A model generated the notes under the pieces. That model saw nothing but the letters and a program-made list of their open reading frames with translations, ran no database searches and was not told the origin of the DNA. Position numbers and translations under genes: made by a program. This document shows, one piece after another, positions 45,584 through 47,707 of a stretch of DNA of 60,074 nt (position 1 is its first letter; the number at the start of each line of letters is the position of its first letter). Origin of the DNA: Candidatus Thorarchaeota archaeon (GTDB taxonomy: Archaea > Asgardarchaeota > Thorarchaeia > Thorarchaeales > Thorarchaeaceae); contig JBHLRS010000019.1 of assembly GCA_048882325.1 (NCBI GenBank), forward strand, positions 1-60,074. Direction: 5' to 3'.

Positions 45584-47707
45584 GTGAAAAGAAGCCTGAT
45601 GCTAATACTATTAGTTGGACTGCTGGCACTTACAGCAATTCCCCACTCCAATGCAGATTTCATCACAAGTGCCTATCCAAACCTAGACAGCGTCTATGTT
45701 GATGTTGTTGTGATGCCTAATGGTAGGATCAACGTCACTTATTGGATGACTTTTACTGCAGCTGAAGGAGGCCTTGGAGGATTTGATTTGCTTGGGATTG
45801 AGGAGGAAACTATAGATGACTCTAGTCGCGCATATGCTGAATGGGGTGGGAGTCGGTATGATCTATTGGTCACCACATACTCAAATGGCTATGGACTAGA
45901 CTGGGTTCCCCGAACTCCAGAGGGAGAAGAAGTTTTGGTTGTATTTGGATATTTCAGTACGAACAGGGTTATTGAGAAGACAACATCTGGAATGTATGGT
46001 GATCTTGGAGTCTTCAACTGGGCTCCAGTTCAGTGGGAAATACCAGTTGACTACGAGTCTGTACAGGTAATCTATCCTATTCAAATGAATTCATCATGGA
46101 TTGAGCCAACTCATGGAGTCACTGCAGAAGGTGCTGCGTACGCAGGCTATGTCGTAGATACAAATCAAGGTCTTTGGGATGGTAGTAGCTACACAAACTT
46201 CACAGAAGTAAATCTTCTCGCCTATCCATATAGTGCCTCAGCAGATCCCCGTTACTTCACAGTTAGTCTAGGTCATAACAACATCGTATCCTATGGTCAC
46301 TTTCGCGTTTTCCACTACACCAATTGGAGTTTCTATGAACCTTATCTTGAAGCTGGTGCACTTGGAGTTGATTATGTACCAATAATCAATACAGACGCAA
46401 ATACGCTCTTTGACCTTCAACTAACAGTCTTCAATTATGGTGATGCTAACTTGGAGGATGTGACAATAACAATGTCACTTCCTGAAAACATCACACTTAC
46501 TTCCGGATCCGTGATAACACATGTTGGAACCCTTTCAGGTGGGGAAACGTGGTATGAAACATACTCACTCTTCCCCGCGAACGTGCCTGCTATCCTCACA
46601 ATATCCTTCCAAGTGAGTGCCTCAAATCTGAATGTATCAGACTGGTTGACATTTCAAGTGGATGTTTATATTCAGGAATATATTCCACCATTAATTCCCA
46701 TGAGCACCTTAATTGGTGCATTTGCTATCTTTGTTTCTCTTGGTTTCATCTTCTACGGATATCGCAGAGTGACAAGAACCTATGGTGCAAAATGGGAGGC
46801 TGACGATACAACCTATGTCTACGAGAGTCCTGAGATTGCCATTCAGACCTTTGGAGAACCAGGCACAGTAGCTGAACTGGACCCAATTGAGTCTGCCTTT
46901 TTCATCAATACAACGCGGCAAAAACTTGTATCCATGATCCTCATGTCATGTGTTCGAAAAGGCGCTGTTCGAGTTCTATCAGCTGACCCATTGAAACTCT
47001 CAGTCACAGGATTACAGTTCCAAGATTTAACATATTACGAAGAGATGTTTGTCGCAGCGATAGTCGATGACGAGCTCGATTCTGATAAGATCGATGATAT
47101 GCTTGAGGAGCTAGCGGACAAAGTACAGGAGAAAGCATGGAGTGCTGACTTCGAGGCTACAAAGACCCATCACGATGAAATGGTTGATGGGGCATGGGAA
47201 GAGCTGAAGGCTTATCCTACAGTAGACGATAGAATGGATTACTATTTCAACCGCCAGTATCGCGGTGGTGGCTGGGCCTGGTATTGGCTTTACATGCATC
47301 CGAGGCATGATCATATTGGTGATGTCTTTGACACACCTGGTCCTTCGATAGCGCCACCTCAAGTACCAGATTGGTTCTCTCAACTCTCTGAAGCAACAGG
47401 TCATGCTGTACGTGGTGTTGGGCAAGTTGTCGGTGATGTCGCGACGACTACTGGACAGATTATGACCAATGTAGGGAAGACCATAGGGAGTGTCCTAGAT
47501 GGTGTGGGAAAGATTATCACCGCGCCTCTTAAACCCTTGATAGAGAGCACAAGTAGATGCGTATCTCATGATGCTTGCCACAGCGCGTGTGTTTCTCATG
47601 ATGCATGTCATAGCGCTTGTCACAGTGCCTGTCATAGTGCTTGTGTCTGTCATAGTGCTTGCCACAGTGCTTGTCATAGTGCTTGTGTGTCAGGAGGTTT
47701 TAGGTAG
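45584..47707 (+). CDS. Single-pass membrane protein (DUF2207-like architecture, extra Ig-like domain) with a Cys/His-rich repeat C-terminal tail
   Basis: Signal peptide; [15 protein letters not shown].MTF and NWAP.QW segments; [12 protein letters not shown]..SLP Ig-like domain; TM [44 protein letters not shown]; terminal (CHSA)n. Confidence 0.85.
   Translation: [707 protein letters not shown]
47558..47704 (+). repeat. Coding tandem repeat [10 protein letters not shown] (7 CHSA units, 11 Cys and 9 His in 49 aa)
   Basis: 12-nt units tgY caY agY gcN with synonymous variation. Confidence 0.95.

Follow-up and report, generated by a model that had tools for sequence, protein, structure and literature searches.

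A membrane protein with a Cys/His repeat tail

The window analyzed here, a 60,074-nucleotide stretch of Candidatus Thorarchaeota archaeon DNA (contig JBHLRS010000019.1 of assembly GCA_048882325.1), contains a gene for a membrane protein (hereafter the target) that ends in a regular Cys/His repeat and, divergently oriented, a gene for a radical S-adenosylmethionine (SAM) enzyme that combines a SPASM domain with a RiPP recognition element (RRE; RiPP, ribosomally made peptide with post-translational modifications). These and the neighboring features are collected in Table 1. Hydropathy placed a signal peptide at approximately residues 1–24 of the target. According to the positive-inside rule, the target would be a type I membrane protein with its last 318 residues, tail included, in the cytoplasm, and so within reach of the radical SAM enzyme.

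Table 1. Genes and features around the repeat tail; positions are those of the window, residue numbers those of the target unless stated otherwise.
Feature	Position (nt)	Strand	Description	Basis
D-Ser-dehydratase-like gene	42441..43592	-	383 aa; Ala_racemase_N and D-Ser-dehydratase domains; 7-base overlap with the stop of the radical SAM gene	Pfam domains
Partner enzyme	43598..45028	-	476 aa, divergent; PqqD-like RRE (approximately residues 41–97 of the enzyme), radical SAM core, SPASM domain	Pfam, alignment, co-occurrence
134-aa protein	45138..45542	+	Directly upstream of the target; fold without clear match	Conservation across 5 Thorarchaeota and 7 bacterial loci
Target	45584..47707	+	707 aa; signal peptide, DUF2207-like ectodomain and DUF11-like domain, one transmembrane helix, cytoplasmic domain, linker, tail	Homologues, hydropathy
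Transmembrane helix	46694..46750	+	Residues 371–389, followed by RRVTR; the only one	Hydropathy
Predicted RRE-docking strand	46814..46855	+	Residues 411–424, with family-invariant Pro416	Complex model (expected error 0.6–0.7 Å), conserved columns
Folded cytoplasmic domain	46856..47338	+	Approximately residues 425–585; winged-helix-like start and long helices; helix 505–523 with invariant W519 and D522	Structure model
Cys/His repeat tail	47558..47704	+	H-x-A-C units	Sequence, orthologue comparison, family statistics, register
HExxH protein	47831..49051	+	406 aa, HEYEH motif; 123 bp after the target	Open reading frame

The tail comprises the last 49 residues of the target (659–707), includes 11 Cys and 9 His, and ends in ACVSGGFR directly before the stop codon (47705–47707). 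A tail of this size and composition, encoded by varied codons, had been described in an earlier reading made from the sequence alone (hereafter the sequence-only reading), and translation and comparison of the repeat units bore it out. Tandem Repeats Finder detected DNA units that match by 70–92%, with periods of 12, 24, 30 and 42 bases. Since the units are just 70–92% alike, the repeat is no fresh slippage array; the peptide units have been kept while the DNA units diverged. The genome of the window holds one tail locus only.

Eight Thorarchaeota orthologues of the target (loci L007, L008, L036, L054, L087, L100, L106 and L115) were retrieved with a degenerate DNA pattern for ACHxACHxACVS. 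Their tails are identical to that of the window, with the sole exception of an F-to-G change in L008, and even the irregular units (CVSHDA and CV-CHSA) are fixed in number and order. At the DNA level, 24–33 of the 147 bases differ between the window and these orthologues, corresponding to 23–29 synonymous and 0–1 non-synonymous codon changes. The 60 residues immediately upstream of the tail vary freely in the same set, and identity over the entire cytoplasmic region is only 69–91%. The tail is under purifying selection and under far stronger constraint than the remainder of the protein, in agreement with the maintenance at the protein level claimed in the sequence-only reading. That reading had also considered that the tail might be absent from orthologues, unalignable in them or an assembly artefact. 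A repeat of short period that closes an open reading frame could indeed stem from chance low complexity, microsatellite slippage or faulty assembly. However, the same tail was found in eight independently assembled genomes with changes that are almost all synonymous, its units have diverged to the extent given above, and more than 120 genomes contain the motif, which rules out an assembly artefact and leaves explanations of this kind with a negligible probability.

Pairing with a radical SAM enzyme and predicted docking

Homologues of the target (81 by word search and 207 cluster representatives by exhaustive HMMER search) are 22–38% identical to the window protein and occur in many bacterial phyla and in Asgard archaea. 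The large ectodomain and the transmembrane helix are conserved, and nearly all complete homologues terminate in (A-C-H-S/D)n-A-C-V-S-G-G-x-x or a close variant. A search for the repeat pattern across genomes had been proposed in the sequence-only reading; carried out with the degenerate DNA pattern, it returned more than 120 loci encoding (A-C-H-x)n-A-C-V-S tails, from about 18 phyla.

Association of these tails with the radical SAM enzyme was assessed at 118 genome loci with a strict tail, using tblastn hits with E below 1e-90 (37–50% identity) as orthologues of the window enzyme. At 97 of these loci the orthologue lies directly downstream of the tail gene on the same strand, and at five Thorarchaeota loci it lies divergently upstream, as in the window. 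The remainder consists of seven loci that were not assessable and nine without the enzyme gene, three of the latter being Thorarchaeota blocks that lack the upstream sequence. Overall, approximately 102 of 108 assessable tail loci (94%) adjoin an orthologous RRE–radical SAM–SPASM gene, and the gene pairing is conserved. Two tail-bearing targets from the same Myxococcales bin (L014 and L024) were seen with one radical SAM gene within the blocks read, and a single enzyme may serve both substrates. In Promethearchaeota, proteins P0059 and P0066 (L004:5131-9764) end in CHSN/CHSA units followed by CACACACAGGGW and are encoded beside radical SAM/SPASM genes.

The partner enzyme has the cluster-binding cysteines of the CxxxCxxC motif (C135, C139 and C142) and seven invariant SPASM Cys residues, and its PqqD-like N-terminal domain scores 22.9 bits in Pfam, just under the cut-off of 23.4. 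The closest solved structures are those of the peptide maturases PqqE, SkfB, CteB and SuiB. No equivalog cut-off of NCBIfam was reached by the enzyme. Its matches include PapB, StsB, SkfB and AlbA-type models (E 1e-20 to 1e-31), all far under their cut-offs, as well as HxsC (E 1e-30) and HxsC4 (1.6e-26), the last being the top match for the enzyme of a Promethearchaeota target. Among the best 25 of the 80 NCBIfam families matched, all of them far under their cut-offs, neither TIGR04463, the family of CrpC, nor a model of a cyclophane synthase (XyeB, HaaB) was present.

Over its full length, the window enzyme shares 45% identity (E 4e-128) with the enzyme of the bacterial target P0024, the gene for which starts four bases past the P0024 stop; P0024 itself is about 34% identical to the window target over 42% of the query. 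Identity to the enzyme adjoining the Promethearchaeota target P0066 is 37%. In a tree of the radical SAM enzymes, those of Thorarchaeota form a clade of their own between two bacterial clades; neither a donor nor a direction of transfer could be named from it, because the root rests on long branches. Two of the radical SAM genes, from an 'Anaerolineae' bin (L055) and a 'Propionibacteriaceae' bin (L074), are almost identical (branch lengths of 0.003–0.005), which points to a contig in the wrong bin rather than to a member from Actinobacteria.

An AlphaFold2 model of target residues 396–707 was confident for the cytoplasmic domain, with a predicted local distance difference test score (pLDDT) of about 90, and reached a pLDDT of 32–47 in the tail. 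No conclusion was drawn from the helical look of the modelled tail, as such values are unreliable. A complex was then modelled from the enzyme, three 4Fe-4S clusters, SAM and the same portion of the target, with author-built alignments. The model obtained an ipSAE of 0.84, versus 0.00 for the best control; among solved complexes, 58 of 80 attain this mark, and among mismatched pairs, 2 of 110, counts that hold only roughly for this model given its own alignments and small molecules. Agreement between the runs covered at least 32% of contacts, and the pLDDT of the partner was 63 or higher. Confident contacts connect residues 40–119 (the RRE and the following linker), 334–360 and 426 of the enzyme with residues 411–424 and 505–523 of the target, and the interface holds the family-invariant residues P416, W519 and D522 of the target and N51 of the enzyme RRE.

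The complex model thus supports binding of the enzyme to the target, and predicts that the part equivalent to a leader is a juxtamembrane strand about 235 residues ahead of the core. In the sequence-only reading, this role had been given to the amphipathic stretch just upstream of the tail (approximately residues 608–640). That proposal did not hold, as the stretch is specific to Thorarchaeota, absent from most relatives and not among the confident contacts, the RRE being modelled on the two target segments named above.

Register of the repeat and the case for tail modification

The periodicity of the tail was analyzed in 130 unique tails from relatives, which have medians of 43 residues, 10 Cys and 9 His. 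Spacing between consecutive Cys residues is four in 999 of 1092 intervals, and the commonest units are CHSA (725), CHDA (173) and CHNA (24). Relative to Cys, His occupies position -3 in 94% and Ala position -1 in 96% of 1092 units, the position between these two being variable (S, D, N, T or G). Irregular units, five or six residues long, numbered 69, and in all but one the extra residues lie between Cys and His, so that the distance from His to the next Cys stays at three. Because insertions fall between Cys and His, the conserved unit is H-x-A-C.

Judged from its spacing, this register would fit a Cys thioether and a His-to-Ala cyclophane alike. In NxxC peptides, a thioether joins Cys to the residue three positions ahead, and H-x-A-C of the window shares this i to i+3 spacing of acceptor and Cys with N-x-x-C. 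The cyclophane has its precedent in HaaB, which links His1-C2 to Ala3-Cβ on H-A-A (PMC11499958). A Cys thioether of the ranthionine or sactionine type, directed to His, Ala or the x residue, is ranked first, somewhat short of an even chance; a His-C2 to Ala-Cβ cyclophane is placed second and would be rather unlikely. More doubtful again is a novel structure, either a chain of His-Cys or Cys-Ala cross-links not described for a RiPP class, or ten Cys/His pairs that form a multi-metal or redox element tethered to the membrane. By analogy, enzyme-paired tails built of Cys and Ala only would lean towards a chemistry that involves these two residues. Homologue P0082 (L125:8001-11069) ends in the His-free tail CACACACAGCACACAGGGR and has a radical SAM/SPASM gene directly downstream; the enzyme encoded there is just 30% identical to that of the window. 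The proposal of the sequence-only reading that the tail undergoes Cys-thioether or His-cyclophane formation stands in part: the gene pairing and the complex model make the tail very probably a radical SAM substrate, and both chemistries suit its units. A single simple repeat of this kind offers a clean test between Cys thioether and His-Ala cyclophane.

Taken together, the data favor a maturation system of RiPP-like type whose substrate is an entire membrane protein and whose core is the tail, a reading to which we assign a probability of roughly 0.7. The repeat tail is the presumed core, that is, the modified part. The enzyme would dock through its N-terminal RRE on strand 411–424 and helix 505–523 of the target and would then move along the tethered tail, modifying the H-x-A-C units one by one. 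The product would most likely be a ladder of small intramolecular cross-links, each formed with a loss of 2 Da, which would remain on the membrane protein and may act as a rigid Cys/His metal-binding element.

Several points weigh against this interpretation. The assignment of the tail as the modified part draws on conservation and analogy, and its chemistry and function are likewise putative. The tail was not confidently placed in the active site of the complex model, the score of which has the approximate calibration mentioned above. The best NCBIfam scores of the partner enzyme were to the heme-pathway SPASM enzymes AhbD and NirJ2, far under their cut-offs, and none of the peptide-maturase equivalogs of NCBIfam was matched. 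About six assessable tail loci had no radical SAM gene within the 8-kb blocks. Finally, an invariant Cys-His pair in every unit would be equally expected of a plain metal-binding tail.

The last point leads to an alternative in which the tail is an unmodified, metallothionein-like element binding metal or iron-sulfur, and the radical SAM enzyme either has a different substrate, be it another residue of the protein, some lipid or some cofactor, or binds the protein simply to dock at the membrane. Adjacent Cys and His in each unit are classic soft and borderline metal ligands, a period of four would align them on one side of a helix, and the fact that the model did not place the tail in the active site would be in line with this alternative; moreover, Cys-rich tails of the related TIGR04222 membrane proteins have been discussed in connection with copper-chelating bufferins (PMC12452194). 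Nevertheless, the 94% pairing and the joint conservation of tail and docking site are hard to explain in this way. Simple metal-binding tails usually tolerate changes of length and order, whereas the units of the tail at hand vary neither in number nor in order and Ala is no less invariant than Cys and His, and the Cys/Ala tail of P0082 lacks His and yet has the same kind of partner enzyme. A purely metal-binding tail is considered unlikely for these reasons. A metal-binding role as such would be compatible with modification of the tail.

Related systems and other genes at the tail loci

The idea that proteins of this kind are targets of radical SAM enzymes is not new. At least 14 homologues retrieved with the window protein at E values of 1e-37 to 1e-23 (P0009, P0011, P0024 and P0042 among them) carry the precomputed label PF27846, 'tSAM_targ_Cxxx_rpt' (radical SAM target, Cxxx repeat), so that curators already read such proteins as radical SAM targets. 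PF27846 and TIGR04117 (Cys-Xaa-Xaa-Xaa repeat radical SAM target) both describe a C-terminal Cys at every fourth residue beside a radical SAM/SPASM enzyme, and the window protein likewise has a C-terminal Cys at every fourth residue and an adjoining radical SAM/SPASM gene. The TIGR04117 model spans 98 positions and represents small paralogous proteins, whereas the window protein is an archaeal membrane protein of 707 residues; the model did not match the window protein or its residues 600–707 at E up to 10, and P0024 scored 16.2–16.9 bits against a cut-off of 50. The window system is an archaeal (Asgard) member of this catalogued kind with a divergent gene order. In the searchable literature, PF27846 appeared in no paper, and neither a paper on the tail family nor an experimental test of PF27846 or TIGR04117 was found.

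Studies of RiPP-type radical SAM chemistry have dealt almost solely with short peptides that are released. Thioether cross-links on a full-size protein were not clearly documented until 2026: CrpC puts ranthionine cross-links on CrpA, a 28.8-kDa protein of Methanococcus voltae (PMC13692751). The tail family is a second and far more widespread candidate. In both systems an RRE–radical SAM–SPASM enzyme is coupled with a full-size protein whose C-terminal region is repetitive and Cys-rich. Engagement of CrpA takes place far from the modified region and a metal-related function of the product is possible (PMC13692751); the same is predicted of docking in the window, and a metal-related function may likewise apply to its tail. 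CrpC is a member of TIGR04463, and its soluble substrate CrpA carries ten repeats of 17 residues containing C-x-x-Q/D motifs (PMC13692751). By contrast, the repeats of the window are four residues long and keep His and Ala invariant, the candidate substrate is membrane-bound, and docking is predicted after the transmembrane helix instead of at the N terminus. Ranthionine was demonstrated in CrpA itself; for the window tail we infer it.

Other radical SAM systems share single traits with that of the window. The triceptide synthases HaaB and HtkB act on repeated three-residue motifs (PMC11499958), and His-x-Ala, contained in each window unit, agrees with the aromatic(1)-X(2)-X(3) motif of triceptide-type cores. 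However, triceptide precursors are short and need no Cys, whereas in the window Cys follows every H-x-A without exception. Thioether maturases such as PapB, CteB, AlbA, SkfB and NxxcB (the last named in PMC11851443) are SPASM/twitch radical SAM enzymes that carry an RRE and work on Cys residues set at regular intervals. The window enzyme has the RRE–radical SAM–SPASM architecture of ranthi- and sactipeptide maturases but, unlike those systems, the window has a membrane protein as candidate substrate, no short precursor, and no conserved protease or exporter. In the HXS antiphage system, radical SAM enzymes mature a full-size effector with short His repeats, HxsA, as is proposed for the window; it involves two such enzymes (HxsB and HxsC) together with HxsD, and the effector resides in the periplasm, has five H-x-S repeats and lacks a Cys ladder (PMC13128918). 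The window unit, C-H-S-A, has Ser directly after His, a single enzyme is present, the tail is predicted to be cytoplasmic, and there was no sign of a defence role.

A further relationship is to TIGR04222/DUF2207 proteins, which, like the window protein, comprise a membrane scaffold, a winged-helix-like domain after the transmembrane segment and a Gly/Ser/Cys-rich tail for which modification by a RiPP enzyme has been proposed (PMC12452194). Some of them are paired with an MNIO (DUF692), and their tails are predicted to be periplasmic (PMC12452194) and lack the ACHx repeat, in contrast to the predicted cytoplasmic tail and the radical SAM partner of the window. Against the Pfam model of DUF2207 (PF09972; cut-off of 24.4 bits), P0036 scored 26.8, P0042 16.8 and a neighbor in L004 22.5 bits; P0036 and P0038 carry precomputed PF09972 labels, and the window protein itself gave no match at E up to 0.01. 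Weak matches to TIGR04222 were found for P0010 and P0082. In L053, ACHS units are joined to a Gly-rich end, ...GGGGSSGGGGASGGW, that resembles ordinary DUF2207 proteins.

The tail family ties the very common DUF2207-type membrane proteins to a candidate enzymatic maturation of tails. Its core stands out for exceptional regularity and strong constraint, and docking is predicted at a well-defined site far from that core. For annotation, an ACHx tail together with the enzyme gene makes a reliable two-gene signature. Should the novel structure considered above prove true, the DUF2207/TIGR04222-type superfamily, with its ACHx, CACA and Gly/Cys tails, would represent scaffolds for enzymatically matured tails.

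Genes flanking the target–enzyme pair bear on the fate of the tail. A further alternative is that the tail is a RiPP core that is cut off and released as a Cys/His-rich peptide, with the membrane protein as a large leader and the HExxH protein as protease. The location of the tail at the C terminus behind a flexible linker, like a RiPP core, would agree with this, as would the HExxH gene, which follows downstream in the same orientation both in the window and in eight Thorarchaeota loci. Yet this gene is 460–1250 bp further off in other Thorarchaeota, has no homologue beside the bacterial and Promethearchaeota systems, and encodes a protein that has no Pfam or NCBIfam family and matched none of the Pfam peptidases; it is probably not coupled to the tail system. 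No protease and no exporter or transporter is conserved with the target–enzyme pair across the compared loci, where the other recurrent genes are only those for the 134-aa protein and, in bacteria, for a membrane protein of ~330 aa. The conserved ectodomain and transmembrane helix further suggest that the whole protein is the functional product. Release of the tail is, consequently, quite improbable, and a free peptide finds no support: the tail is part of a 707-aa membrane protein, and with neither protease nor exporter conserved, the product of the proposed maturation most likely stays on it.

The D-Ser-dehydratase-like gene keeps its position in the Thorarchaeota loci L100 and L007 and is not found beside bacterial systems. 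It and the HExxH gene were both rejected as core components, since they showed no similarity to the genes flanking L001 (bacterial) or L004 (Promethearchaeota), and their presence reflects Thorarchaeota synteny only. The ~330-aa membrane protein is encoded after the radical SAM gene in 59 bacterial loci (L121:448-1431 on the minus strand, L001:11056-12045 on the plus strand, and 57 others). It has 3–4 transmembrane helices and a soluble C-terminal half, and it matched no Pfam or NCBIfam family. Chloroflexota-type and Thorarchaeota cassettes are devoid of it, and it is absent from the window genome, where an hmmsearch gave a best E of 2.2. The 134-aa protein, where present, is always encoded just upstream of the target; it has 25 invariant columns and is 36–42% identical to its bacterial counterparts. 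Its structure was modelled with confidence (pLDDT 81), and Foldseek gave no clear match to the fold. As far as its sequence and distribution indicate, it would be an accessory component in a subset of the systems.

The cytoplasmic domain of the target had no Foldseek match at E up to 0.001, and the target sequence none among the sequences of solved structures at E up to 1. The one structural likeness observed for this domain was a weak one to eukaryotic GOLPH3/Vps74 (VIA-align Z of 5.7 and 5.2, with 3.3 for the next row; Foldseek E about 0.5). The domain is common to the bacterial homologues and so is not specific to Asgard archaea.

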